Shown piece by piece: positions 7,575 through 26,901 of a stretch of 31,618 nt of DNA. A model generated the notes under the pieces. That model made no database searches and was not told the DNA's origin. It worked only from the letters and a program-made list of their open reading frames with translations. The position numbers and the translations under genes are program-made. The stretch spans positions 1-31,618 of the forward strand of contig JBGPGO010000027.1 in NCBI GenBank assembly GCA_041483895.1, written 5' to 3'. The stretch's first letter is position 1; the number at the start of each line of letters is the position of its first letter. Source of the stretch: Fimbriimonadia bacterium (GTDB taxonomy: Bacteria; Armatimonadota; Fimbriimonadia; Fimbriimonadales; JABRVX01).

Positions 7575-8584
7575 TGGCGTTGCCGAGCCTGGAAGCCGTG
7601 GGACGCGTGGCCGCCCCGGACCTGATGCTGGCGATAGCGGACGACATCCAGGCGGTCGAATTCCTTATCACCCAGGAGCTGGAGTCGGAGGAATTGGTGG
7701 TCACGGAACTGGCCCGCCACACATTCGGCGGTGGGGGTAAGCGGTTGCGGCCGGCGATGGTGAGCCTGGCGGCACGCGCGGTCGGCAAGCCTTACCAAAG
7801 CACGAGAGTCATAAGGGCCGGGGCGTCGATGGAAATGATCCACATGGCAACGCTGATCCACGATGATGTGATCGATGAAAGCCGTACGCGGCGCGGAAGG
7901 CCGACTGCCAACTCCCTATATGGAAATCGCACCTCTATTTTGTCCGGCGATGTGCTCCTTAGCAAGGCGCTGCGTCTGTTGGCGCTGGACGGGGACAACA
8001 AAGTGATCCGCACGGTGGCGGAGGCGGTCGCGGCGATGAGCGAGGGAGAGGTGGCGGAGGTGCAGGCGATGGGTTGCCTGGACCTCAACCCGCAGGCGCA
8101 TTTTGAGATCGTTCGGAAAAAGACCGCCGTCTTTATTGAATGCTGCTGCCGAATCGGCGCGCAGATCGCCGGGGCGGACGAGCGTTTGGAAGAGCGGCTC
8201 GGTCTGTATGGCCATCATGTCGGTATGGCGTTCCAGTTTGCCGACGATATTTTGGATTTCAAGGGCGATCCGGAAAAGACGGGCAAGGCGATTGGGGGCG
8301 ATTTCCGAGAGGGCTGTGCGACGCTGCCCCTTATCCATGCGCTGGCTCGTACCAGCCAATCGGAGCGGCACCAGATCGAGCGAACCTTTGGACAGAACCC
8401 GGACGATGGCAGCATCCGAGCGGTAGTGGAGATGATCGACCGCGCGGGCGGGTTTGACCACACGCGGGAGGTGGCGGCCGCCCACGTGCAGTCCGCCGTG
8501 GCGTCGCTGGCGGCCATCGGGGAGACGCCGGTGCGCGAATGCCTCTATTCCATCGCCGATTTCGTGGTCTCGCGCGATCGATGA
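7574..8584 (+). CDS. Long-chain polyprenyl diphosphate synthase
   Basis: GGKRLRP, first Asp-rich motif HDDVID..RRG, KT and second motif FQFADDILD. Start placed at GTG 7574, overlapping the menG stop. Confidence 0.92.
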   Translation: MALPSLEAVGRVAAPDLMLAIADDIQAVEFLITQELESEELVVTELARHTFGGGGKRLRPAMVSLAARAVGKPYQSTRVIRAGASMEMIHMATLIHDDVIDESRTRRGRPTANSLYGNRTSILSGDVLLSKALRLLALDGDNKVIRTVAEAVAAMSEGEVAEVQAMGCLDLNPQAHFEIVRKKTAVFIECCCRIGAQIAGADERLEERLGLYGHHVGMAFQFADDILDFKGDPEKTGKAIGGDFREGCATLPLIHALARTSQSERHQIERTFGQNPDDGSIRAVVEMIDRAGGFDHTREVAAAHVQSAVASLAAIGETPVRECLYSIADFVVSRDR

Positions 8585-9399
8585 GACGGTATGCGGCTTA
8601 TCTCTTTGATCTGGATGGCGTGATCTATCGGGGCAAGACGCCGTTGCCGGGCGCGGTGGAGGCGGTCAACACGCTGGCCCGGTCGTCCAAGATAGCGTTC
8701 CTGACCAACAACTCCGCGCTGCATCGGAGCGAGTTCGTGCAGCGGCTGACAATGATGGGAATCCGGGCCAATGCCGGCTGGAAGCCGGCGTTACAAAAGC
8801 AATCCGATCCCTGTAACGCCGGCTTCCAGCCGGCATTGGAGGTCTTCACATCCGGCTATGTCGCGGCGTGCCGGCTGGAGGAGCGTGGCTACCGACGGGT
8901 CTTCGTCGTCGGCGAATCGGGCCTGGTGGATGAGCTGCGGGAGAAGGGATTGGAAGTGGTGAAGGGCCCGCCGTGCGACGCGGTGATCGTGGGGCGTGAC
9001 ACCGGGTTCACGTTCGAGAAGCTGGTGCTGGCCAACCGCGCGATTCGCGATGGTGCTGCGTTCTTCGCCAGCAACCGCGACGTGACCTATCCGGTGGAAG
9101 ACGGACTGGAGCCGGGGGCGGGCGCAATCGTCGCTGCCGTGGCGGCGAGCGTCGAGCGCGAGCCGGAATCGTTTGGCAAGCCTTCGCCGGCGATGGCCCG
9201 GTTCGTCCTGGAAGCTCTCGGAGTCACGGCTTCCGACGCCCTGCTCGTTGGCGACCGGCTGGATACGGACATCGAATGCGCCCGCCGCGCCGGCATCGAT
9301 TCCGCCCTCGTCCTTACCGGCGTCACGACCGCCGAGCATGCGCAGGACGGCCCTGCGGCGACGTCTGTGATTGAAACGTTGAATGAATTGGTTACGTGA
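8581..9399 (+). CDS. HAD-IIA (NagD-like) hydrolase with an in-frame palindromic insertion
   Basis: FDLDGVIY, FLTNNS, GKP, VGDRLDTDI and VLTGVT. ATG 8581 overlaps the upstream stop. Confidence 0.92.
   Translation: MRRYAAYLFDLDGVIYRGKTPLPGAVEAVNTLARSSKIAFLTNNSALHRSEFVQRLTMMGIRANAGWKPALQKQSDPCNAGFQPALEVFTSGYVAACRLEERGYRRVFVVGESGLVDELREKGLEVVKGPPCDAVIVGRDTGFTFEKLVLANRAIRDGAAFFASNRDVTYPVEDGLEPGAGAIVAAVAASVEREPESFGKPSPAMARFVLEALGVTASDALLVGDRLDTDIECARRAGIDSALVLTGVTTAEHAQDGPAATSVIETLNELVT
8768..8839. repeat. REP doublet inside CDS
   Basis: Perfect 28-bp inverted repeat CCAATGCCGGCTGGAAGCCGGCGTTACA / TGTAACGCCGGCTTCCAGCCGGCATTGG with a 16-bp spacer. Each arm is itself a hairpin. Confidence 0.9.
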
Positions 9400-9418: not shown

Positions 9419-10018
9419 CTAAGGTTTCGGAGCAACGATGGGTAGCAGAGAGCGTTCCGCAGTTTCACCAACTATCCCGGGGCTTGGCCTTCGCCCATAG
9501 CGCGTCATCGCTTCTTCAAATTCGCTCTCAAAGTCCCTTCCGGGTCCTGACGCGAAATAAGGCTGAAAATCTGCAAATAGGATCAGTTCGCCATTATTGC
9601 CGACTTGGACCGGACGTTCTAAGCACACTTGCCCGGAAATCGCAGTAAGTTGGAGTAGGTCAGGGGGCAGATTATACAGGTAACGATTCAGCATGAAAAT
9701 ACGGCAATAAAACGTGTCGCTGAGCGCCAAAAATCGCTGATCAGAGCAGTACCGATGAACAGCTTTCTGAAGAACCTCATCGGGAAAGGATGAAAGCACC
9801 TTCATATGAAACGTCTTGACTTGGATGACTGAATTATCCGCTCGTCCATCTCCCTCAGAGAGCATCGGGCATGTCCGGAGTAATCCAAATGCCGCGTCAA
9901 CCGCAGCGCGAGATCTCAGAACGGAGAGGTCCTTGGTCGCATGACTCGATTCGGCATGTTGCGAAACCAGCAATGACGAGAATAATGCACAGCAAGCCGC
10001 CCATGCGTGGAAATACAT
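9419..10018 (-). CDS. Hypothetical protein with a possible signal peptide; candidate Rhs immunity/partner protein
   Basis: Starts 14 nt after the Rhs gene stop with SD-like GGAGG. The region has visibly lower GC. No family recognised. Confidence 0.6.
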   Translation of the reverse strand: MYFHAWAACCALFSSLLVSQHAESSHATKDLSVLRSRAAVDAAFGLLRTCPMLSEGDGRADNSVIQVKTFHMKVLSSFPDEVLQKAVHRYCSDQRFLALSDTFYCRIFMLNRYLYNLPPDLLQLTAISGQVCLERPVQVGNNGELILFADFQPYFASGPGRDFESEFEEAMTRYGRRPSPGIVGETAERSLLPIVAPKP

Positions 10019-10032
10019 TACCTAGCCTCCTT

Positions 10033-11001
10033 CTAAGGACATTGGCCTGATCGAGGGTCGTTGTCAGATGGTATTGGTGGACAACCGCCAGGCTCAAGCC
10101 CGATCCATTCTGCTGATCCTGGGTCCGTGCAGCAGTTCCATTGCAAAATTGCGTCGTGACTAATTCCACCACCTGACCATCCGTCAGGAGGAGTATTGCT
10201 GCACAGAAAATCCTTTCGCAGTCGATCCTTACACGGTCCCCATCCCGGTCCGGGCGGCCGGCTACAGTCGCCGGCGATTTCGGAACAGGGATAGAACACG
10301 ACAATGCCGAACCATGTAGCCACGCCCTTGCCGCAGTCAGCCTTCTGTTCCGTCGAATATACATCCTGGACCGATGCGGGAGTGCTAGTTACTTGCCAAG
10401 CTTCGTACAGCTTCTCGTCGAATCCCTTTGTGTCTTTGCCATCGCAAGATTTCGGATAAGATTTTATCTCTCTATACTGAACGACCCACCCACATTCGTC
10501 ACCTGGATCGAGATCGAAGCAAACCGCGTACAAGGCCTTCAGGCACGGCCTCACGATTCCAGCATATTTGCAATGGATTGATAACAACCCGGTGGGATCC
10601 GTCAGCTGCACCGGTCGCTCATTTGCATAAACGTATGGATGAGTGAGTTGATAGTAAAATGACCAATGTGCTGGCAAGGGCCGGTCTTTCGAAGTCCACA
10701 AGCCTGCGGCTGCCGTGAAATGTCTCGCCCGAACATAATAATCGGAGTGAGCGAGTCCGGTCTTGCGATAGCCAAGCGAGCCAACCCACTGGAATTTTGG
10801 ATCTGGGCCAACCCCCGATTTCGACAGCAGAGCCCCAAATGGTTTGTACCGATATTCGTTTATGATATTGGCAGATTGATCCACTGTGGCGGTAACGTTG
10901 CCCAGTGCATCCGTGAGGTAATCGGTCCGCACGCCGTCGGTTACTTCGCCGACGATCTGACCATTTATCGTTATGTAATTAGTAACCTTGGTTCCTGGCA
11001 T
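10033..11001 (-). CDS. Short Rhs repeat-associated core protein with Cys-rich C-terminal extension
   Basis: YLTDALGNV, YRYKPFG, YYVRARHF, GLWTSKD and YVYANERPVQLTDPTGL (PxxxxDPxGL). Start at ATG 11001 follows GGAGGAG. Confidence 0.88.
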   Translation of the reverse strand: MPGTKVTNYITINGQIVGEVTDGVRTDYLTDALGNVTATVDQSANIINEYRYKPFGALLSKSGVGPDPKFQWVGSLGYRKTGLAHSDYYVRARHFTAAAGLWTSKDRPLPAHWSFYYQLTHPYVYANERPVQLTDPTGLLSIHCKYAGIVRPCLKALYAVCFDLDPGDECGWVVQYREIKSYPKSCDGKDTKGFDEKLYEAWQVTSTPASVQDVYSTEQKADCGKGVATWFGIVVFYPCSEIAGDCSRPPGPGWGPCKDRLRKDFLCSNTPPDGWSGGGISHDAILQWNCCTDPGSAEWIGLEPGGCPPIPSDNDPRSGQCP

Positions 11002-11251
11002 CTCTGACTCCTCCGCTTCCGAAAGCCAGGCGAAATCTTTGGCCTGCTTCCGAGTCAATCAGTATAAAGCTCCTTACCGAGATAGACGGTTGAAAGTTCC
11101 CTTGTGGTTCGGCAAACCTCAAGAAAATAGCGTCGCATTCTTGTGTCGTACCTGTGCGTCATTAGACTGTCTACCGTGCTTCTACTTTCATGGAACGTTC
11201 AGAGTACGCGATATCACACATCTGATCGGCGACATTTCCGACATTTCACCG

Positions 11252-11263: not shown

Positions 11264-12742
11264 ATGCACCGGCTGGTAGGGATCGAAACGGAGTATGGCC
11301 TCGTGGTAGAGGGGCGGGATGCCTCGCACCAGATGGAGGAGGCCGCCGAGGTCGTGCGCTCGCTGGCCCGCAAGCATGCCCCCGGATGGGACTATCGCGC
11401 GGAGAGCCCGCGGAGGGACGCCAGGGGTTTTACGGCGGACCGACTGCGATTCGACCCGGAAGACGCCAAGCTGGGCAAGCCCGGAGAGACATTTGGGGAC
11501 GCCGCCAGCCGCAGCGACCGCGTGCTGACCAACGGCGCAAGACTATACAACGACCACGGCCACCCGGAATACTCCACACCGGAATGCCTCTCCCTCATGG
11601 ACCTGGTTGCGCACGACCAGGCAGGTGAGCGGATTGTGCAGGAATGCGCCCGCGTCTACGCGAAACGGACGGGCCGCGCGGCGCACGCGATCAAGAACAA
11701 CACCGACCATCAGGGCGCGAGCTACGGCACACACGAGAACTACCTGGCCCTGCGCTCTGTCCCGTTCGAGAGCTACGCCCACGCACTGCTCACATTCCTG
11801 GCGACGCGCATCCTCTATGTCGGGTCGGGCAAAGCCGGATCGTGGCGATTGAGCGAGCCCGCCTACCAAATCTCCCAGCGCGCGGACGTTTTCGCAGAGC
11901 CGATCGGGATCGACACGCTATATCGCCGGCCATTGATAAACACAAGAGACGAGCCACATGCCGACCCGTTGGAGTGGCGGCGGATTCATATCATCGCGGG
12001 CGACGCGAACATTCAGCCGTACGCGACTGCGCTCAAGGTCGGCGCCACCTGCCTAGTCCTCGACCTGGTGGAAGACGGTTGGCAGCCGCATATACTGCTC
12101 AGAGACCCCGTACGCGCCATCGCCCAGATCTCCCGCGACGACAGCTACCAATGGCCCGCGGATACCGACAAAGGCCCCATCGGCGCGATAGAAATCCAGC
12201 GCCAATTCTTGAACGAGGCCGAGCATAGATACCGGGGCCGCGATGCGCAGACGGACTGGACGCTGGATGCCTGGAAAGCCACCCTCGATGGCCTCGAAAT
12301 GGACCCGATGACGCTCGCGGACCGGCTGGACTGGCCGGCCAAGCTGAACATCCTGCGTATGTTCTTGGACGAAGACGGGGTGGAATGGGGATCGGACCGC
12401 CTGGTTGCGGCAGACCTGGAGTATCATAATGTCGATCCGGATGCCAGCCTGTTCGCCTGTCTGGAGACCGTGCCGCTGGTGAGCGAGGAACGAATTGAGG
12501 CGGCCATGAGCCGGCCGCCCAGCGATACGAGAGCGGGGATTCGGGGGCTGATTGTTGACCGGCTGACCGACCGAATCGAGGCGATTACATGGGGCGGAGT
12601 GGAACTGCGAACCGAAAGCGGGACGCTCCGCGTAGACCTTAATAGCTTCGTTGGGGAGCCGCTGAACGACTGGGTAACCACGCTGCGAAACGCGGCGACG
12701 GATGAAGAATTGCTGGAACTGCTCAAAAGGGGGTCCAAATGA
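11264..12742 (+). CDS. dop: Dop-like deamidase/depupylase (PafA/Dop family)
   Basis: GIETEYG, Dop loop WDYRAESPRRDARG, NGARLYNDHGHPEYSTPE, YGTHENY, INTRDEPHAD, R.HII.GDAN, DLEYH and TRA. Confidence 0.88.
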   Translation: MHRLVGIETEYGLVVEGRDASHQMEEAAEVVRSLARKHAPGWDYRAESPRRDARGFTADRLRFDPEDAKLGKPGETFGDAASRSDRVLTNGARLYNDHGHPEYSTPECLSLMDLVAHDQAGERIVQECARVYAKRTGRAAHAIKNNTDHQGASYGTHENYLALRSVPFESYAHALLTFLATRILYVGSGKAGSWRLSEPAYQISQRADVFAEPIGIDTLYRRPLINTRDEPHADPLEWRRIHIIAGDANIQPYATALKVGATCLVLDLVEDGWQPHILLRDPVRAIAQISRDDSYQWPADTDKGPIGAIEIQRQFLNEAEHRYRGRDAQTDWTLDAWKATLDGLEMDPMTLADRLDWPAKLNILRMFLDEDGVEWGSDRLVAADLEYHNVDPDASLFACLETVPLVSEERIEAAMSRPPSDTRAGIRGLIVDRLTDRIEAITWGGVELRTESGTLRVDLNSFVGEPLNDWVTTLRNAATDEELLELLKRGSK

Positions 12743-12927
12743 CGACAATGCAAGAACGGCGCACGCCGCAGAAGCCGCTCGACCCGATCACCAAGCCCAA
12801 TGACGGGGACGGGCCGTCCAAACCGGACGTGCGAAAGCCCGGCGGCGGGTCAGACGAGCTGCTCAAACGGTTGCGCAAAATCGATCCGGAACAGGCCAAG
12901 CGATACAGGCAGCGAAGCGGTCAGTGA
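12739..12927 (+). CDS. ubact: UBact, Pup-analogous protein modifier (62 aa)
   Basis: Sits between dop and the proteasome beta gene. Disordered N-terminus and C-terminus LLKRLRKIDPEQAKRYRQRSGQ, matching the UBact R[ST]G[EQ] ending. Confidence 0.9.
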   Translation: MTTMQERRTPQKPLDPITKPNDGDGPSKPDVRKPGGGSDELLKRLRKIDPEQAKRYRQRSGQ

Positions 12928-13673
12928 AAGGCGATTTTCTCGAACTGCTGAAGAATCAGGGCGCGTGGCGGGAGCCCGTCACCGGGACCGTCACTTCGCC
13001 GCCGATCGAGACGCATGGCACGACCGTCTTGGCGCTGCGGTACAAGGACGGTGTGCTGAATCTGGGAGACCGCCGCGCGACCGCCGCGAACGCCATCATG
13101 TTCGATCGCGCGGAAAAGATCATGCCGCTCGACGACTTCACGCTGGTGGCGATCGCCGGCGCCTACGCCAAGGCGATTGAGGTAGTCCGATACCTGCGCC
13201 ATGCCTTCAAATATTTTGCCCGCACTCAGCTTCAGGAGATCAGTTTGGAGGGGAAGCTCCAAGAGGTATCCCGCGCGCTTGCCGGCAATTTGGAAATGGC
13301 GATGCAGGGAATCGGGCTTTTTGTGCCGCTGATCAGCGCTTGGGACCAAAAGGACGGCGCGGCGAAGATCTACTTCTACGATGGCATGGGCGCCCGATTC
13401 GAATCGAGCGAGTTCGGCGCGGCGGGATCCGGATCGGAACGCATTCGCGGAGTCTTCAACTACATCGAGCGCACAAAGGGGCCGTTTGCGGACAGGTCTT
13501 TAAAAGAGGTCCTGCAAGAGGGTCTCTATCTGCTCGACATCGCCTCCGATCTGGACAGCGCGACCGGCGGGTATAACAAAATTTTGCCGACCGCGATGAC
13601 CGTGAGTTCCGATGGAGTTCGCGAGATTTCCGAAGAACAATTGCGGACCGCCATTGAAGGGGTGAAAAACTGA
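12924..13673 (+). CDS. prcB: 20S proteasome beta subunit
   Basis: 32-aa propeptide ending HG followed by TTVLAL (catalytic Thr1), plus GDRRAT, EKI, GSGS and D.ATGG. Confidence 0.92.
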   Translation: MKGDFLELLKNQGAWREPVTGTVTSPPIETHGTTVLALRYKDGVLNLGDRRATAANAIMFDRAEKIMPLDDFTLVAIAGAYAKAIEVVRYLRHAFKYFARTQLQEISLEGKLQEVSRALAGNLEMAMQGIGLFVPLISAWDQKDGAAKIYFYDGMGARFESSEFGAAGSGSERIRGVFNYIERTKGPFADRSLKEVLQEGLYLLDIASDLDSATGGYNKILPTAMTVSSDGVREISEEQLRTAIEGVKN

Positions 13674-14422
13674 TGTACACCCCTTATGACTGGCAGCAGA
13701 ACCTCACTCATCGATCGCAATACGTCGAGCATCGCATCGCATCTGGGAGTCCCGTCGTTGGGATCAGTTGTCCAAAGGGTGTAATTCTCGCAACGACTCG
13801 CACGACCGCGCGCAAGATTTTCGAAATCTATGACCGGCTGATCTTCGGCGGCATCGGCAGCCAGGCGGACCTCGAAACGCTCCGAATCAGCGCCACTGAT
13901 TTTGCCCATTCGGAAGGATTTACCCGCAGCGAGGATGACGTGACCGTTCAGCGCGTGGTCGGCTTCGCTCTTTCTCCCGCCCTCAAGCGCGCGTTTGCCG
14001 ATCCGATGACCACGCCGTTCGTTGCAAAGGCCCTCTTCGCCGAGATTGGGGACAAACAGGCCGACGACAAGTTTTATGTGCTGAACTGCGAAGGCGAATA
14101 TCATGCGCATGAAGGCCATGCCATCATCGCCGGATCCGCCGCCGCGGAAGAGGCAGCCGACGCCGTGCTTGCCAAGCGCGACAAGGGAAAGTCATTGGAA
14201 CATGCCGCCGCCTCCGCGCTCATCGCCTGGGGCGCGGCAAAGCACGCGCAGGAAGAGTTGCGGGACTATTCCGACGAGGATGAGGCATTGAAGCGGCTAA
14301 ATCAGGAGCTCGAAGGCGCGTCGGTGGAGATCGGATGGCTGGAACGCGAAACGCAGCGGCAAAGCAAGTTCTCTCTGTGGCCCGCGGAACGAATCGACGC
14401 CGCGGTAAAGATGTTGAAATGA
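13673..14422 (+). CDS. prcA: 20S proteasome alpha subunit
   Basis: YTPYDW..., GSPVVG, KIFEIYDR, G.G...D.E.LR and DDVT. TGATG coupling to prcB. Confidence 0.88.
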   Translation: MYTPYDWQQNLTHRSQYVEHRIASGSPVVGISCPKGVILATTRTTARKIFEIYDRLIFGGIGSQADLETLRISATDFAHSEGFTRSEDDVTVQRVVGFALSPALKRAFADPMTTPFVAKALFAEIGDKQADDKFYVLNCEGEYHAHEGHAIIAGSAAAEEAADAVLAKRDKGKSLEHAAASALIAWGAAKHAQEELRDYSDEDEALKRLNQELEGASVEIGWLERETQRQSKFSLWPAERIDAAVKMLK

Positions 14423-15927
14423 GCTTGGGTCGCCGCGTATTTGGGCTGGAAACCGAGTTCGGCTGCCTGGTGTTGGATGACAGTCTCGGCCCCATCGAGC
14501 ACGTGGTCGATTGCGTCAAGAACCACGCGTTTTATCATTGCAAGATGGGTGCGATCGATCTGGTCGCGCGCAACGAGGCTTTCGAGCCAGCGCGGTCCGG
14601 TGGATTTCTGATCAATGGCGGGCGGCTCTATGTGGACGCCGTCGGGAGTCACATGGAATACGCCACTCCTGAATGCCGCGATCTTGCTTCTTTGGTGGCG
14701 CACGACCGCGCCGGTCATCGATTGCTGCTGCAGTGCATTGCAGAGCTGGGATGGGACGGCAAAGTGGCGTTCTACAACAACAGCGTCGATCATTTCGGCG
14801 GACATACGTTCGGCTGTCACGAAAACTATCTCGTTCGCACCGACGACCAGTTTTTTGGCGAACCGATCCAACTGCTGTATCCGTTCTTGGTCACGCGTCA
14901 GATTTTTGCGGGAGTCGGCCGGGTCGGCGGGCATATTCTGGATCGCAACCGGGTCACCATCGATTCTCGCGACGTGGTAGAGAATCCAGTGGACTATATC
15001 TGGGTCTCACACGTCTATTCGGTCTTTCCCGATCCTACTATCGACTATCAGTTATCGCAACGCGCGGATCATATCATCCGCGCCGCGGCCACACGGGTGC
15101 GGTTCAATCGCGCGATCATCAATCCCAAGTGGGACGATCTATACACATTCGAAAGCATGAGCCGCCTGCATATACTGTTCGGGGAATCTAACATGTCGGA
15201 GTATGCGTATGCGCTAAAAATTGGGACAACGTGCCTCGTTCTCGATTTGTTGGAAGAGGGCGTACTCCCCTGCGATTGGGTGTTCGCGAACGAACTGGAC
15301 TGTCTGCGGGCGCTGCGATCCGTGTCGCGCGACGAGACATGGAAGTGGCCCGTGACATTGGATGATGGGGAGACGATTGGGGCCGTGGACCTGCAGCGAA
15401 AATATCTGCGATTGGCGCAACTGCATTTTGCCGGAAGGGATGCCGATACCGACTGGGTTCTCGTCGAATGGGAGCGGACGCTGGACGGGCTGGAGCGCGA
15501 TCCGATGTCGTTGGCGGACCGATTGGATTGGGTGGCGAAGCGGCAAGCGCTCGAAACCTATATCGCGGATGGCGGACTGGAATGGGACGATGACGCGCTG
15601 CATTCGGTGGACATGGAATACCACAACGTGGACCCGCGCGAGGGACTGTACTATGCGCTGGAACGAATGGGCCGGATGAAGAGGGTCTGCTCGGAGCGGC
15701 AGATATTGGATGCGATGACAGAGCCGCCCGCCGACACCCGCGCCGCCGGTCGGTCGCTGCTGGTGCATAGCATTTTGGAGACAAAGACCGCGCCGTATTG
15801 GATCGATTGGGACATGGTGGCGCTGGAGCGCGGCATCCAGTTCGCTATGCGCGATCCGTTCCATGCCTACACCAAAGAAGCGGCTTCTTTCTCCCACCGA
15901 TTGCCGGGTCCGAGACGGAAGCGGTAG
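14419..15927 (+). CDS. pafA: PafA-like tag-protein ligase
   Basis: VFGLETEFG, NGGRLYVDAVGSHMEYATPEC, FGCHENY, LSQRADH, RLHILFGESNMSE, LDWVAK and TRA. No Dop loop. ATG 14419 overlaps the prcA stop. Confidence 0.85.
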   Translation: MSLGRRVFGLETEFGCLVLDDSLGPIEHVVDCVKNHAFYHCKMGAIDLVARNEAFEPARSGGFLINGGRLYVDAVGSHMEYATPECRDLASLVAHDRAGHRLLLQCIAELGWDGKVAFYNNSVDHFGGHTFGCHENYLVRTDDQFFGEPIQLLYPFLVTRQIFAGVGRVGGHILDRNRVTIDSRDVVENPVDYIWVSHVYSVFPDPTIDYQLSQRADHIIRAAATRVRFNRAIINPKWDDLYTFESMSRLHILFGESNMSEYAYALKIGTTCLVLDLLEEGVLPCDWVFANELDCLRALRSVSRDETWKWPVTLDDGETIGAVDLQRKYLRLAQLHFAGRDADTDWVLVEWERTLDGLERDPMSLADRLDWVAKRQALETYIADGGLEWDDDALHSVDMEYHNVDPREGLYYALERMGRMKRVCSERQILDAMTEPPADTRAAGRSLLVHSILETKTAPYWIDWDMVALERGIQFAMRDPFHAYTKEAASFSHRLPGPRRKR

Positions 15928-15936
15928 CCGAAACCG

Positions 15937-15992
15937 GTAGCCGCAAGCTTTAGGTTGCGCTCCGATTTGCGCAGGCTAAAGCCTGCGGCTAC
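15937..15992. repeat. REP doublet (REPIN-like) between convergent genes; may act as terminator
   Basis: GTAGCCGCAAGCTTTAGGTTGCGC...GCGCAGGCTAAAGCCTGCGGCTAC: GTAG-headed inverted hairpins. It overlaps the DUF1003 stop codon. Confidence 0.82.
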
Positions 15993-16678
15993 TTCGACGT
16001 GATCTCGCGCAGCATCTCGATCTGCAGCTCCTGCACCTCCATCAGCCGCCGCATTTGGCGCAGCAGAAGGTGGTCCATTTTTTCATGCAACTGCCGGATC
16101 TCTAACTCGGCTTTTAGGTTGGTTTTGTAGTCGCTTTCGGCCCGCAATCGATCTCGATCCTCTTGACGATTTTGGCTCATCATGATCACCGGCGCTTGCA
16201 TAGCCGCGGTGCATGAGAGCAGCAGATTGAGGAGGATAAATGGGAACGGATCGAACGGTTTTTGCATCAGCCAGGCGGCATTGATCGTTATCCACGCGAC
16301 GATGATGACACCGAAGATAATGATGAACGCCCAACTGCCGCCGAACGAAGCGACCTTGTCGGCAATTCGCTCCCCAAACGTCAACTGTCGTTCAAACTGT
16401 TTGTTAATGTCCTGCGAAAGAATGTCGTGCTTTGCAAGGGTATCGACGACTTCTTGCTCCAAGTCCGTCAATTCTCCGCGATCGCTTGCCAAAAGCTGCT
16501 CGACAAATTCGGCGCGGTGTTGATTGATGCACGGGACGCAGATCGGGTCGCCGGGATTCCATTCCGGATGGCGCTTGTTGATGAACGCCGCAAACTCCGT
16601 ATCGGAGATGCCGATCACGGCGAGGCTGGCCGGCACTGTGGCGCCGCATATCGGGCACGTTAGCTTTTTTTCGTCCAT
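15989..16678 (-). CDS. DUF1003-family membrane protein with N-terminal CxxC...CxxC motif
   Basis: GERIADKVASFGGSW, FDPFPFILLNL.LS..AA.QAP.IMMSQNRQ and NLKAE.EI..LH.K.D. Confidence 0.9.
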   Translation of the reverse strand: MDEKKLTCPICGATVPASLAVIGISDTEFAAFINKRHPEWNPGDPICVPCINQHRAEFVEQLLASDRGELTDLEQEVVDTLAKHDILSQDINKQFERQLTFGERIADKVASFGGSWAFIIIFGVIIVAWITINAAWLMQKPFDPFPFILLNLLLSCTAAMQAPVIMMSQNRQEDRDRLRAESDYKTNLKAELEIRQLHEKMDHLLLRQMRRLMEVQELQIEMLREITSK

Positions 16679-18009
16679 GCGGCTATTGTGGCCAATCTGC
16701 TTCTTGGGCGGCGGAGTGTAGCAGCGAGGAGCACGAGGCCGGGGACGACGCTGAAAGACGGCTCCGGAACCGGGGACGAGAGCCAGACGGAGACGGTGCC
16801 GGCCATGTCCTTCGCGTACCAGAGCACCTGTCCATTTTCACCAACGGCAAGTGAGCGCGCGCCGAGGTAATTCAATCCGCCGTAAGCGTCCGCTGACAGG
16901 TCGAACCGGTTCACAAAAACGCTTTCGAGCGGTACCTTGTCGCCGGCCGCGGACCAGACGCCATTGCCGAAGCTATCGAGCCCAGTCATATGGAACACTG
17001 TCGGGATTCCCACGATGTCTGTCGTAAGGTTCTTGCCGTTCAAAACGGCCACGTAGCCAAAGTTGGTGGTGGAAGCGCTCCAGAACACGTCGCCCTCATC
17101 GTTAATGCGGCTCTTTCCCAACTGAATCAAATTTACTCCGAGGTCCGGCACTTCCGCGGTGAGATCCTCCATTCCCAGCATCATGTGATGCGTGTTGTCC
17201 TTGTCGATTCGGACCCAAAGGTAACTGTCCGAGGAGTTAATGTCCTCTGGGTGTCCGCCTTTCATCGAGGGGAACAGGCCCGCCGTCACGTTTTGATCGT
17301 TGAGGAAAAGATCGAACCGGCCGTTCGTGGTCGATCCAAGGGCGTCCCACAGCACGCTTCCGGTCCCGCCGATGATGCCCTCCGGCACGACCTGCGTCTC
17401 CCCAAGAACCCCCGCCGTGATGTTGACTCCGTTCTCATAGAGGTTCGCGAAAGAGTTCCCTTGTCCATCGTACGTCGTGGCCCCATACAGGGTGTCGCCC
17501 GCTCCGTTGATTCCGTAGAGCGCGACGTCGGAAATCGTCGCGCCGCCGGAAATCTCTTGGCTTCCTTTGAATACCCGCGTAGCGCCGGACTTTTGCCACT
17601 TCCAGAACGGGTTGCCGGCGTCGTCGATCCCTCGAATGACGACCCGATCTTGCGTCGGGTCCGGCGGAAATAGCGGACCATAAAAATCGTGGCCGTCGGC
17701 GTTGACGGAGATCGAGCTCACCGTGCCCCCCTCCCACGCCACCTGCCCGCCGCGGTTGATACCGTAGGTCGTGCCGTTGCTGACGGGTCCGAGGTAGGTG
17801 AAGTTGAGGTTGGTCTTGTACTTCCATGCGTCGAAATGGCCGTCCAGAGCCCTGGTTGTGTAACACGGAACGCCGTCGGCATTGATGAAGCTGTTGGTCG
17901 TCTGCCCGGGATCTAATATCTCCTTGATCAACCGCTCGTGCTTCCATTGGGTCTGGGACTCCGCGCACACGAATGCTAATGTCGCGATGACGGCGATGCA
18001 TGATTTCAT
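16660..18009 (-). CDS. PEP-CTERM sorting-domain protein, paralog 1
   Basis: Signal peptide, repeated INxxGxVxW-type beta units, and C-terminal VPEP + hydrophobic helix + RR. Confidence 0.85.
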   Translation of the reverse strand: MKSCIAVIATLAFVCAESQTQWKHERLIKEILDPGQTTNSFINADGVPCYTTRALDGHFDAWKYKTNLNFTYLGPVSNGTTYGINRGGQVAWEGGTVSSISVNADGHDFYGPLFPPDPTQDRVVIRGIDDAGNPFWKWQKSGATRVFKGSQEISGGATISDVALYGINGAGDTLYGATTYDGQGNSFANLYENGVNITAGVLGETQVVPEGIIGGTGSVLWDALGSTTNGRFDLFLNDQNVTAGLFPSMKGGHPEDINSSDSYLWVRIDKDNTHHMMLGMEDLTAEVPDLGVNLIQLGKSRINDEGDVFWSASTTNFGYVAVLNGKNLTTDIVGIPTVFHMTGLDSFGNGVWSAAGDKVPLESVFVNRFDLSADAYGGLNYLGARSLAVGENGQVLWYAKDMAGTVSVWLSSPVPEPSFSVVPGLVLLAATLRRPRSRLATIAAWTKKS

Positions 18010-20283: not shown

Positions 20284-22665
20284 CTAAGGCTTCTTGACCA
20301 GCGCCAATTTCAACGCTTCGTCAACGTGGTTGACGAAGTGGAAGGTCATCTCCCGGCGGACCTTGTCCGGTATGTCGTCCAAATCGTGCTCGTTCAGCTT
20401 CGGCAAAATCACATTCAAAATCCCGGCCCGATGCGCGGCCAGCATCTTCTCCTTGATGCCCCCGACCGGCAGCACCTTTCCCCGCAGCGTGATCTCGCCC
20501 GTCATCACGATATCCCGGCGCACGAGCCGCTCCGTCACCGCGCTGGCGAGGGCGGTCGCGATGGTGATCCCGGCGCTCGGACCGTCCTTTGGAACCGCGC
20601 CCGCCGGAACGTGAATGTGCACATCGCGCGTCTTCAAAAGCTCCGGATTTACCCCCAAAGCCTGTGCGCGCGAACGAATGAAGGTCTGAGCCGCAAGGGC
20701 GGATTCCTTCATGACGTCCCCCAACTGCCCGGTTAATAAGAGTTCCTTCCCCGTCCCCGGCACCAGGCTGACCTCGACGGAAATAATGTCGCCGCCCGCC
20801 TCGGTATAAACCAGGCCGGTCGCCGTCGCCTCCAAATCCTTCGTTTCCGCGGTGCCATAGTGGTAGCGCGGATTGCCCAAATAAGAGCCGACCCCGCGCT
20901 TCGTGAGCGCCACCGAGGCCTTGCTCCCCTCCGCCACTTTGCGAGCCACTTTGCGGCAGACCGCGGCAATCTCCCGCTCCAGCCCTCGCACGCCGGCCTC
21001 GCGGGTATAGGACCGGATGATCGACCGAAGACCCTCATCCTCAAATTTCAGTCTTGACGCGCCGAGCCCGTGGTCGCGCAGATTTTTCGGGACCAAGAAT
21101 CCCTTCGCAATCGCCAGCTTTTCATCTTCGATGTAGCCCGGGAATCGCAACGTCTCCATGCGATCCATCAGCGCCGGCGGAACGGTGTCCAATATATTCG
21201 CGGTCATGATGAACATGGCGTCAGAAAGGTCGAACGGCACTTCCAGATAGTGATCGGAGAATCGCTCGTTTTGCTCGGGGTCCAGCGCCTCGAGAAGCGC
21301 CGCCGTGGGGTCCCCGCGAAAATCTATTCCCAGCTTATCGATCTCATCGAGCATGAACACAGGGTTCCGGCTGCCGCACTGTTTGATGCCGTGAATGATC
21401 CGCCCCGGCATGGAACCCACATAGGTACGTCGATGCCCTCGAATCTCCGCCTCGTCCCGCACGCCGCCCAGCGACACGCGGACGAATTTGCGTCCGAGGC
21501 TTCGGGCGATGCTGCGGCCGATGGAAGTTTTCCCGACTCCGGGAGGTCCCACGAAACAGAGGATCGGCCCCTTCTGCGCATGAGTCAATTGCCGGACCGC
21601 AAGAAATTCAAGAATTCTTTCCTTCACCTTTTGCAGCCCGTAATGGTCTTTGTCCAGAATCTTTTGCGCGGCCTTTATGTTGACCGTGTCCTGCGTTTCG
21701 ACCGACCATGGCAAGCTGCAAAGCCAATCCAAATACGTTCGGATGACAACTCCTTCGGGGGCGGCCGGAGGCATTCTCTCAAGGCGTTTGACTTCGTGCT
21801 CGGCTCGCTCGGCAACCTCGTCCGGCATGACCGCCAATGCCACTTTCTCGCGGTACTCGTCGATCTCCGTCAATCGGTCGTCGCGCTCGTTCAGCTCTTG
21901 CTGAATCACCCGAAGCTGTTCGCGCAAATAGTATTCGCGCTGCGTGTCCCCCATTTCGCGCTCGACTCGGCTGCGAATCTCAGACTGAATTTCAAGAACC
22001 TCTAGTTCGTTGACCAGAAGCTCCCGCAACGATTCCAGCCGCTCTTCCGGATCCGTCAGCGAAAGGATCTTTTGCTTCTCCGAAATGTGAATCTGAAGAT
22101 GGTGCGCGATGGCATCGGCGAGTCGGCCCGGTTTGTCGATGTAGTTGACGGAGGTCATCGCCTCCGCCGGAATCTGCTTCCCCATTTGCGCGGCTCGCTC
22201 GAACATCCGTACGCATTCTCGCATCATCGCCTCGATGCGGGGCGACATCGGCTCTTCCGTGGAGACGACGGAAATCCTTGCGATGATGTGCGGTTCCCGC
22301 TGGATGACGGACTCCATCCGGGCTCTGGCCAAACCGCGAAGCACGACTCGGACCGTGCCATCCGGCACCGGCAACACCTGCACCGCCTCCGAAATGACGC
22401 CCATGGTATGCAGGTCTTCAGCGTCCGGATCATCGATAGTCACATCCCGCTGCGCGACGACCAAAACCAGCCGATCCTGATTCAGCGCAAAGTCCAGCGC
22501 TTTAAGAGATCGGTCGCGCCCGACCAGCAGCGGCGAAAGCTCATCCGGAAAATGGACGGCGTCCCGAATCGGCAAAACGGGAATCTCGGTAGGAAACTCA
22601 GCGGCATCGACTCCCGCCGCCAGTTCCCGAAGCTCCTCTTCAATCCAGGCTGTTTGCTTTTTCAA
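20284..22665 (-). CDS. lon: ATP-dependent protease La (Lon)
   Basis: Lon N-domain, DHYGL..VKERI, Walker A GPPGVGKT, Walker [15 protein letters not shown] (catalytic Ser) and GGIKEK. Confidence 0.97.
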
Positions 22666-22674
22666 TCACGAAAC

Positions 22675-23949
22675 CTAGCTTGCCTGTTTGAGGTCGTCGG
22701 CGGTGAGCATCAACGGCGTTCGGTGCTCGGAGAACAGCTTGTCGGGGATGATCACCTTCTTGATGCTGGGCATCGACGGCGCATCATACATAACGTCCAG
22801 CATGATCGATTCGATAATGGCCCGAAGCGCTCTCGCTCCCGTGCCGCGGTTCATGGCCTCGCGGGCGATCTCCCGCAATGCGCCGTCTTCGAATTCCAGA
22901 TCCACGCCGTCCAGATCGAAGAACTTCGCGTACTGCTTGATGAGCGCGTTCTTCGGCTCCTGGAGAATTCGAACCAATGTGTCCTCTTCCAGCGGCTCAA
23001 GCGTCGCCACGACCGGGAGGCGACCGATGAATTCGGGTATGAGACCGAAGCTCAACAGGTCCTCCGGAAGCAGATGCTTCAAGAGATTGTGGCGCTTGGC
23101 GTCCTTGCTCTCCGGCTTTGATCGGAAGCCCATCGAATTGTCCCGCATTCGGCGCGCGATGATATTCTCAATTCCTTCGAACGAACCGCCGCACAGGAAC
23201 AGGATATTGGATGTGTCGATCTGGATGTATTCCTGGTGGGGATGCTTGCGGCCTCCCTGCGGTGGGACGTTGGCAATGGTGCCTTCCAAAATCTTGAGCA
23301 AGGCCTGTTGCACGCCTTCTCCGGACACATCGCGGGTAATCGAGGGATTGTCCGACTTTCGTCCTATCTTGTCGATTTCATCTATGTAGATGATTCCCCG
23401 CTCGGCGTTTTCGACCGTCTGCCGAGGGTCGCCGTTGGTATCCGCCGTTTGGAACAGCTTGAGCAAAATGTTCTCGACGTCTTCGCCAACGTAGCCGGCC
23501 TCTGTTAAGGCTGTGGCGTCGGCAATGCAGAACGGAACGTTGAGGATTTTGGCGAGCGACTGAGCCAGAAGGGTCTTGCCGCTTCCAGTCGGGCCGACGA
23601 GCAGAATGTTGCTCTTCTGCAGCTCGACTTCTGAGCTGCCGCCCATCCGGATGCGCTTATAGTGATTATAAACCGCGACCGACAGAGATCGCTTCGCAGC
23701 CTCTTGCCCGACGACGTACTGGCATAGGAAGTCGAATATCTCTTTCGGCTTCGGGATGGTTTCCACAAAGCTGCGTCCGATGGGTTTGTTCGGTTTGCCT
23801 GGCTCGGTCTTCATAATGTCTAAACAGAGATCGATGCACTCCGAGCAGACACCGCCATACAACCCTACGATCAGCTTTCTGACCTGATCCCGCGATTTCC
23901 CGCACAGTACACAACGCCCGTCCAGTCGTTCCATACCCGTCTTCGCCAC
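22675..23949 (-). CDS. clpX: ATP-dependent Clp protease ATP-binding subunit ClpX
   Basis: Zn-binding CVLC...[29 protein letters not shown] loop and MGF (IGF-type) loop. Confidence 0.97.
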
Positions 23950-23959
23950 CTAGTGTCTC

Positions 23960-24547
23960 CTACCGCTTCGCCCGCTCTAAGACCTGATCGACGATCCCGT
24001 ACTCCTTGGCCTCAGTGGCGGACATGAAATAGTCTCGTTCGGTGTCTTTCGTCACCTTCTCTATGGACTGTTTGGTGTGGCGGGAGAGTATCTGCATGAG
24101 ATATTCCATATTCCGTTCGATTTCCTTGGCTTGAATATTAATATCTAGCGCGGTACCCTGTACGCCGCCGCTGACCTGGTGAATCATTACGCGGGCGTGC
24201 GGCAGGCAATACCGCTTGGACTCCGATCCGCCGGCCAGCAGCACAGCGCCCATGCTGGCTGCCTGACCCACACAAATGGTAGCTATATCACATTTAACGA
24301 TCCGCATTGTGTCATAGATAGCCAGCCCTGCCGACACAACGCCGCCCGGCGAGTTGATATACATCTCGACATCTTTGTCCGGGTCCTCTTTCTCCAAGAA
24401 CAGCAACTCCGCAATGACCAAATTCGCGACATGGTCGTCAATTGGCTCGCCGATGAACACGATTCGGTCCTTCAGCAGCCGCGAGTAGATGTCGTAGGCG
24501 CGTTCTCCTCGCGCCGACTGTTCCACAACCATGGGGACTAAACTCAT
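23960..24547 (-). CDS. clpP: ATP-dependent Clp protease proteolytic subunit
   Basis: [23 protein letters not shown] (Ser), MIHQ (His) and ERD. Start at ATG 24547 after GGAGG. Confidence 0.97.
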
Positions 24548-24929
24548 CAAGCACCCTCCGAGAATGCGCGCCAATTGGGCATCATTCACTTATTATCGGC
24601 TTCGGACCGGATATCCCGATTGCCGGAACCGATTCCAGGCTCGGGCGCCGCTGGCCGATAGTTAAAGGTTACCCGGAGAGGGAGGCTTTTCGGCGTCTGG
24701 AGATATTGCGGGACCGTAGCCAGGCAAATATCGATCCGGCAAGCATCAACCCCGCCGCACCGGCCGGATTTTTCCAAGTACCCGGCATCGGTCCTTATTC
24801 CTGCCTGACATCGCTGCACAAGTTGTTTGTCGTCGGCTGTGGCTTGTGCTGTCGGCTGCGAACGCGCGGTCGTACGTGGCGGGGTTCAAGGGCCGGATTC
24901 GAAGAGTCCTGCCAACCAAGTACCCTCCA

Positions 24930-26301: not shown

Positions 26302-26349
26302 GTTTTATCCCTCAACAGGTCCTCCTGTTGAGGGGGGTCCGGCAGCCAC
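26302..26349 (-). repeat. REP-like hairpin at the 3' end of the RAYT gene
   Basis: GTGG head, then perfect 11-bp stem CCCTCAACAGG/CCTGTTGAGGG (26309-26334). Confidence 0.8.
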
Positions 26350-26901
26350 ATCGGATAGCGGGAGAACCTCCCCTGGCATGCAAATCAGCCCGGACTCGGG
26401 GTCCCACCGCCCGGCCTCATGCAGATGGACGCTGGACCACTCATAATCCTCTGGACAAAGGCACAATCCTCTACGCACCGGATTTTCGTGCATGTATTTG
26501 ATCTTCTGCCAAAACACCTCGTCGGATTCGATCGGAAAACTGCGGAAGCTAACCTGCCAAAGAGTCCGTTGATTGAGTCCCCTTTGGATTGCGAACAGCG
26601 CGTCGATCTCTGGCGGGATCAGCGGCAACAATTGCTTTGCGGTATACGACTTCAGATTCTTGACGAAAGTTGAAACGTCCTTATCAGCGGGCAGCCGTGT
26701 TACGAAGTGGATATGCTCCGGCATGACGACATTTCCATGCAAGGCGGCGCCATAGTGTCGGTGCACCTCGAAAAGCAGCTCCACCATGCGCTCGGCAACT
26801 TCCTCTATGCGAAAGATCGGGACGAAGTCGAGAACAGTGGTGGTGACGAACACTAGCTGCCCGGCTTCGGCGACGTTCTTGAAGTGGCGATAGCGGGCCA
26901 T
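26305..26901 (-). CDS. REP-associated tyrosine transposase (RAYT; IS200-like HUH/Y1)
   Basis: FVTT, VVMPEHIH (HUH), LWQ, YMHENPVRRGL (catalytic Tyr) and YEWSS. Confidence 0.9.
   Translation of the reverse strand: MARYRHFKNVAEAGQLVFVTTTVLDFVPIFRIEEVAERMVELLFEVHRHYGAALHGNVVMPEHIHFVTRLPADKDVSTFVKNLKSYTAKQLLPLIPPEIDALFAIQRGLNQRTLWQVSFRSFPIESDEVFWQKIKYMHENPVRRGLCLCPEDYEWSSVHLHEAGRWDPESGLICMPGEVLPLSDVAAGPPSTGGPVEG

Follow-up and report, generated by a model that had tools for sequence, protein, structure and literature searches.

The 31,618 nucleotides of contig JBGPGO010000027.1, referred to below as the window, contain a five-gene operon (Table 1) that encodes the small protein tag UBact together with a Dop-type enzyme, both subunits of a 20S proteasome and a predicted UBact ligase related to PafA. 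The operon is part of a real and intact copy of the already described UBact system, while tails of the cognate ATPase ARC that are devoid of the penultimate tyrosine and rewired motifs in the ligase are new. Taken together, operon and ARC probably constitute a Pup-like pathway in which proteins are tagged with UBact and degraded.

All five genes are located on the forward strand with open frames, and re-reading of the junctions yielded ATGA, GTGA, TGATG and ATGA overlaps, in this order, exactly as the initial annotation had it. A search with hidden Markov models, which that annotation had recommended, assigned the products along the operon to the Pfam families Pup_ligase, UBact, Proteasome, Proteasome and Pup_ligase. 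In the NCBIfam scan, UBact scored above its cut-off, and Dop, the beta and alpha subunits and the PafA/Dop-related ligase scored below the actinobacterial ones. Each gene of the system is present in a single copy in the 3.95-Mb, 95%-complete genome. The designation of the system as complete is correct for the genome, though not for the operon, as the latter lacks an ATPase gene and ARC/Mpa is encoded on a separate contig (C22). Because the five-gene order recurs in five of 20 related loci examined and dop and ubact are adjacent in all 20, a chance arrangement is excluded; two other loci are devoid of the ligase gene, ten keep dop-ubact-prcB, two keep dop-ubact, and in one the ligase gene is inverted and prcA is absent.

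The named top matches of the ligase stem from Fimbriimonadales/Armatimonadetes (59–68% identity), and the named locus L056 (58%) stems from Chthonomonadales. The host is a member of the Armatimonadota and most likely of the Fimbriimonadales, in agreement with its earlier assignment outside the Actinobacteria. UBact is found in 113 of 201 genomes of the phylum and in 59 of 61 genomes at the level of the order, the unpublished genome G036 being included among the 59. Of 61 phylum genomes, 39 encode ARC, PrcA and UBact together, and not one of the three was found in the remaining 22; 38 of the 39 also gave a strong ligase match, the exception being G061, where the operon runs off the contig. As kin genomes are not independent, this pattern is one of co-retention and not a statistic. 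That the locus is a decaying or silent remnant appears extremely unlikely: a promoter and terminator scan at the operon yielded promoter-like sites at chance level (two found, 2.2 expected), as a remnant might show, but all frames are open and coupled, gene order is conserved and identity amounts to 59–76% in comparison with genomes of the same family, and nearly all genomes of the order contain UBact.

The 62-residue tag passes both available models, each by a wide margin (Table 1), such that its assignment to UBact in the initial annotation is borne out, as is the remark that the family itself is not new, UBact being already named in Pfam (PF20513) and NCBIfam (NF033388). The tag is basic (15 Lys plus Arg vs. 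nine Asp plus Glu) and ends in YRQRSGQ, conforming to R[ST]G[EQ], which we take to be the tail motif of UBact. The SGE remnant predicted to stay on target lysines after digestion with trypsin would arise from this RSGQ tail only after prior deamidation. Residues D49, P50, A53, Y56, R57, Q58, R59 and G61 are invariant in an alignment of 80 rows that were chosen by tail motif, so that the invariance of Y56, Q58 and G61 is due to selection. Among 168 distinct tags, likewise picked by tail motif, 27 end in RSGQ, 35 in RSGE, 66 in RTGQ and 40 in RTGE. Profile searches of the genome gave no match to Pup (PF05639), with Corynebacterium glutamicum as positive control, and the tag itself does not qualify as Pup by either the PF05639 match or the tail, which is SGQ instead of GG[EQ]. 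A second, weaker UBact-like match was seen in four genomes of family f16 (G084:C4:768105-768378, G219:C11:2499-2760, G236:C30:12142-12415 and, on contigs C18 and C99, G071); in three of the four it directly follows the first, suggesting tandem tags.

Residues 1–446 of the first PF03136 enzyme align to Acidothermus cellulolyticus Dop (4B0R, E 1.8e-97), and the protein features a Dop-loop (WDYxxExPxxDARGF), DHGHPEYSTP and NTRDEPH, the latter with Arg227 of Dop. It scores 405 bits with TIGR03688 (cut-off 492.3, missed, and passed by actinobacterial-type controls) vs. 302 bits with TIGR03686. Judged by its sequence, this enzyme is Dop, a requirement here given the terminal Gln of the tag. The beta subunit has a 32-residue propeptide ending in ETHG, followed by Thr1 (codon 13020-13022), so the intact Thr1 after an HG propeptide end noted earlier is indeed there; Gly(-1), Thr1, Asp17, Lys33 and GSG are all present in the translation, Thr1, Asp17 and Lys33 being the catalytic positions in what we presume to be the numbering of Ntn threonine proteases. 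The closest solved relatives of the alpha subunit are PrcA from Rhodococcus and Mycobacterium tuberculosis (E ~1e-8; position 8 of the query aligned to position 10 of the chain). It retains the pocket lysine (RKIFEIYD), the motif of which was matched in 105 of 110 alpha open reading frames. A naturally open-gate alpha subunit was considered and rejected, as the N-terminus is only two residues shorter than in these two proteins, vs. seven in open-gate variants. A separate subcluster is described for 20S subunits from armatimonadetes, nitrospirae and verrucomicrobia (Fuchs, 2017), and Armatimonadetes are named as carriers of such subunits in PMC5666114.

The ligase is the second PF03136 enzyme; its relatives start near 14419 rather than at an ATG located further upstream (14335). 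Homologues of Dop and PafA are named in Armatimonadetes in PMC7947786. G9, E11, E13, R69, D73, H78, E80, H134, E135, R215 and R249, which include the metal, nucleotide and catalytic sites, show no variation among the 120 closest relatives. Of the PafA-specific residues collected by Hecht (Table 1 of PMC7947786), the equivalents of Phe34, Phe47, V-G-S, Ala65, Thr66, His174 and Asp418 are present, and those of Ala30, Ser43/44, Leu56 and Ala67 differ.

The most conspicuous deviation concerns the alpha-loop. Armatimonadota ligases carry RVRFNRAxINPK where PafA carries TTRSRPIINTRDEPH, with the catalytic core kept, and the loop of the ligase studied here is RVRFNRAIINPK. The PafA alpha-loop WEGxSSATTRS with its TT pair and Arg193/207 is not matched by the ligase, which reads HIIRAAATRVRFNRAIINPK and shares nothing with it except His174. 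Within the stretch that stands in place of ATTRSRPIINTR, R226–R231 and N235–K237 are invariant in all 120 closest relatives, and the key position (K237 here) is Lys in 28 and Arg in two of 30 ligases of the phylum. The arginine replaced by K237 (R193 in M. smegmatis, R207 in C. glutamicum) is described as the main substrate-recognition residue of PafA, dispensable for formation of phospho-Pup (PMC10465538), and loss of the TT pair or of this Arg is reported to slow or abolish the activity of M. smegmatis PafA (PMC7947786). We rejected inactivation of the ligase through the exchange of Arg for Lys, since this Arg is described as unneeded for phospho-Pup (PMC10465538) and Lys and Arg interchange among the ligases of the phylum. 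The equivalent of C. glutamicum R218 is also changed, to S248. In addition, the ligase contains an insert at about residues 172–204, which makes it ~30 residues longer than Dop in this region; the spacing from GxVG to SQR amounts to 40–42 residues in all 30 ligases of the phylum. On metagenome contigs, ligases from loci encoding tags with an RTG tail (80 of 120 listed stretches examined) kept the Arg of RDEPL in 34 of 34 printed loops, and the TT pair is absent from them as well. The alpha-loop (NPK) and the insert of the Armatimonadota ligases are conserved departures from the Pup paradigm and new here.

Based on these deviations, the second PF03136 enzyme might be viewed as a ligase of narrow specificity, an additional hydrolase or a catalytically inactive partner of Dop, with no broad set of tagged proteins. 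It scores equally with the PafA and Dop models (TIGR03686 291 bits, cut-off 551.3, missed, vs. 289 bits for TIGR03688), the Arg, the TT pair and the R218 equivalent are all changed, and the insert could cover the substrate side. On the other hand, the full Dop-loop is absent, as is the Arg that Dop is described to need for hydrolysis (PMC10465538), the active-site positions are invariant, and, apart from dop, the genome contains no further PF03136 gene, such that no alternative ligase candidate was found. We therefore consider this view very unlikely and retain the enzyme as the predicted UBact ligase.

An AlphaFold2 model of the ligase is of high overall quality (mean predicted local distance difference test, pLDDT, 91.1; predicted template modeling score 0.92) and is weak at the insert and the alpha-loop. 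The model of the complex of UBact and ligase scored 0.84, vs. 0.01 for the best of three controls; 116 of 157 solved pairs reach this mark, as do two of 215 mismatched ones. At least 79% of contacts are shared between the runs, and the pLDDT of the partner is 52 or higher. In the model, UBact residues 37–62 lie on ligase residues 377–417, which form a helical groove, and the tail contacts E13, D73, residues 75–78 and 124–132 and R228. The modeled complex speaks in favor of UBact being bound by the ligase. Together with the intact catalytic residues and the co-retention within the phylum, it argues for a working covalent tagging system.

To place the ligase among its relatives, phylogenetic trees were derived from sequences with a recognizable NxRD/E or NPK motif, the only ones that entered the FastTree set (119 rows; 105 of 150 representatives passed the length and motif filter), and from sets of 35 and 49 rows hand-picked from the FastTree tree, with actinobacterial-type PafA and Dop labeled by TIGR cut-offs. 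FastTree grouped the ligase with PafA and several odd sequences (support 0.97), whereas IQ-TREE grouped it with UBact Dop (86/78, and a value of 98 in the Shimodaira-Hasegawa-like approximate likelihood ratio test for a second, quick tree). Separate clades are formed by UBact ligases (100/100) and UBact Dops (92/88), both apart from the actinobacterial-type PafA and Dop. Approximately unbiased tests on the whole alignment did not reject the PafA grouping (p 0.38 and 0.17). The signal joining the UBact enzymes resides in ligase residues 361–440, a region that contains the modeled tag groove and on its own rejects the PafA grouping (p 0.004); when it was omitted, no grouping was preferred (p 0.71 vs. 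0.41), nor when the alpha-loop was also dropped (0.45 vs. 0.57). Shared adaptation to one tag explains the joining signal as well as shared descent does and is the simpler reading, and an independent origin of the ligase through a duplication of its own from a Dop-like ancestor, convergent with PafA, appears rather doubtful.

Many distant representatives of the Pup-ligase family (P0129, P0132, P0136, P0153, P0171 and others) carry none of the motifs of Dop, PafA or UBact ligases, pointing to further unclassified subfamilies. In one genome, an additional ARC of greater divergence lies next to a distant Pup-ligase homologue (G066:C18:3340-6258), and another encodes a lone distant ligase homologue (G079:C49:24593-25393) with no match to ARC, PrcA or UBact in that genome.

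The best match of ARC in the Protein Data Bank is Mpa (E 9e-87). Since dop-ubact is directly preceded by arc in many metagenome loci as well as in L056 from Chthonomonadales, the separation of arc from the operon in this genome would be secondary. Mycobacterial Mpa is described to dock via GQYL with its penultimate Tyr (PMC12288473, PMC8755798, PMC4254994). ARC ends in RGQIV here, and a penultimate Tyr (GQYL/HbYX) occurs in none of 67 distinct tails of UBact-type ARC, where the comparison with GQYL rests on published descriptions; the tails were counted on the basis of BLAST (67 distinct of 72 complete, 31 from Armatimonadota and 36 from RTG-tail loci). Tagging and unfolding might thus work with ARC being uncoupled from the 20S particle, which would then act alone or with another activator. 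The missing Tyr fits this possibility, as do the unlinked position of arc and a low-complexity insert of ~26 residues near the C-terminus of ARC. Opposed to it are the joint presence or absence of ARC and PrcA in all 61 genomes, the non-random tails, which end in Ile (39), Val (27) or Phe (1) in 67 of 67 cases and have Val or Ile as the penultimate residue in 56, the retained alpha-pocket lysine, and the position of arc in L056 and numerous metagenome loci, where it heads a gene run with prcBA. Uncoupling is accordingly quite improbable; in view of the joint retention of ARC and PrcA and of the preserved character of the tail, we prefer a changed docking code over lost coupling and regard HbYX-free docking of ARC on the 20S particle as fairly likely. 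The insert just mentioned is in frame (IGPIGP...GRIGRIG..., G000:C22 ~33490-33600, L036) and absent from 11 aligned relatives, and related DNA occurs at 32 clusters of the genome. Bpa/PafE was not found in a search in which the control also stayed silent, so that this negative is uninformative.

If the preferred reading of a tag-and-degrade pathway holds, UBact would be made with a C-terminal Gln, which Dop, by analogy with its homologues, would deamidate to Glu, later removing and recycling the tags. The ligase would hold residues 37–62 of UBact in its helical groove, as modeled, and, given its intact active site, would phosphorylate the side chain of the terminal Glu with ATP and conjugate it to target lysines. 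Targets may be picked via a rebuilt basic patch, with K237 at the position of the PafA substrate-recognition Arg and R226/R228 as new elements. ARC, although not encoded in the operon, would capture the tagged proteins through contacts with UBact, unfold them and feed them for degradation into the PrcAB particle, on which it may dock with its basic and then aliphatic tail, the carboxylate presumably meeting the alpha-pocket lysine in the absence of the HbYX tyrosine.

Several points weigh against such a pathway. All enzymes and 20S subunits score below their actinobacterial TIGR cut-offs, and the ligase matches Dop as well as PafA, not only in TIGR scores but also in Foldseek comparisons (template modeling score 0.79 for Dop, 0.77 for PafA). 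It is devoid of the TT pair and of the Arg that are important in M. smegmatis PafA, and its alpha-loop is modeled as short strands and coil with no helix (pLDDT 72–79). ARC lacks the GQYL motif, which mycobacteria are described to require for opening of the gate (PMC12288473, PMC8755798). Finally, the score of the complex may derive in part from likeness to solved structures of Pup with PafA or Dop (4BJR, 7OXY), although UBact does not match Pup.

Table 1. Genes of the UBact-proteasome system and the adjacent repeat; positions refer to the window unless a contig is given.
Feature	Position	Strand	Length	Evidence or remark
dop-like gene (Dop-type deamidase/de-tagging enzyme)	11264-12742	+	492 aa	PF03136 475 bits
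UBact tag gene	12739-12927	+	62 aa	PF20513 70.6 bits (cut-off 27.8), NF033388 71.8 bits (cut-off 35)
prcB, 20S beta subunit	12924-13673	+	249 aa	PF00227, TIGR03690 138 bits (below cut-off)
prcA, 20S alpha subunit	13673-14422	+	249 aa	PF00227, TIGR03691 78 bits (below cut-off)
PafA-like predicted UBact ligase gene	14419-15927	+	502 aa	PF03136 410 bits
arc (ARC/Mpa ATPase)	G000:C22:32025-33800		591 aa	TIGR03689 399.5 bits (cut-off 504.75, missed)
Inverted repeat, GTAG-flanked REP-like hairpin	15937-15992	not assigned	24 bp	directly 3' of operon

The arms of the inverted repeat downstream of the operon are 88% complementary, and 25 clusters of it occur across the genome. It is a genome repeat resembling repetitive extragenic palindromic (REP) elements that is not specific to the UBact system and possibly serves as a terminator; the window also contains a Y1_Tnp (IS200/RAYT-like) gene at 26305-26901. 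A clpP-clpX-lon cluster (20284-24589, minus strand) is located 4.4 kb from the operon. Directly upstream of the latter, a stretch of lower guanine-plus-cytosine content encodes, on the minus strand, an RHS-core protein (TIGR03696) with a Cys-rich C-terminus (10033-11058) and a downstream open reading frame without family (9419-10018), a pair that may represent the tip of a polymorphic toxin and the cognate immunity gene. A secreted protein (16660-18009, minus strand) ends in a VPEP-type sorting motif, PEP-CTERM-like as judged by eye, and had no Pfam or NCBIfam match at E 0.001. A perfect 28-bp inverted repeat (8768-8839) within the HAD-IIA phosphatase gene 8539-9399 is in frame, adds two NAGxxPALQ/E peptides and has related sequences at 28 genome clusters, suggesting insertion of a palindromic repeat into a coding gene.

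As such the locus is routine, with every gene named in databases and UBact near-universal in the order; its value lies in testable comparisons. An ATPase family that has no penultimate Tyr and is strictly kept with 20S genes is a natural test of ATPase docking and gate opening of the 20S particle. The rebuilt recognition patch of the ligase bears on how a single enzyme selects hundreds of targets, and the enzyme could yield a proximity-labeling tag orthogonal to Pup/PafA. That UBact defines a separately wired tag-proteasome pathway, with a convergent ligase, a different target surface in Armatimonadota and an aliphatic ARC tail that opens the 20S particle, is unlikely; if true, ARC would break the HbYX rule for ATPase activators.

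UBact and UBact loci in Gram-negative phyla were reportedly described by Lehmann et al. in 2017 (BBRC 483:946, PMID 28087277). This report is mentioned in PMC11354881, and pairs of Pup-like tags and PafA had already been noted in verrucomicrobia and nitrospirae (Iyer, 2008). Neither UBact biochemistry nor a Tyr-less ARC tail or an NPK ligase was found in the literature searched, which comprised few subscription journals and no supplements, such that the tail and NPK features could be contained in the paper by Lehmann or in Hecht's supplementary alignments. The system described here resembles other UBact-proteasome loci in a tag that passes both models, in the R[ST]G[EQ] tail and in the presence of Dop/PafA homologues, PrcB, PrcA and ARC. 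It differs from L056 and many metagenome loci in that arc is unlinked, and from RTG-tail loci in that Armatimonadota ligases feature NP[KR] and the insert instead of RDEPL. With the actinobacterial Pup-proteasome it shares the gene order dop-tag-prcB-prcA, the catalytic residues, a Gln-ended tag, the fold of the ligase and, as predicted by modeling, a tag that lies in a helical groove with its tail in the active site, whereas its tag is basic and does not match Pup, its ARC is devoid of GQYL/HbYX and the alpha-loop of its ligase is unrelated to ATTRSRP.

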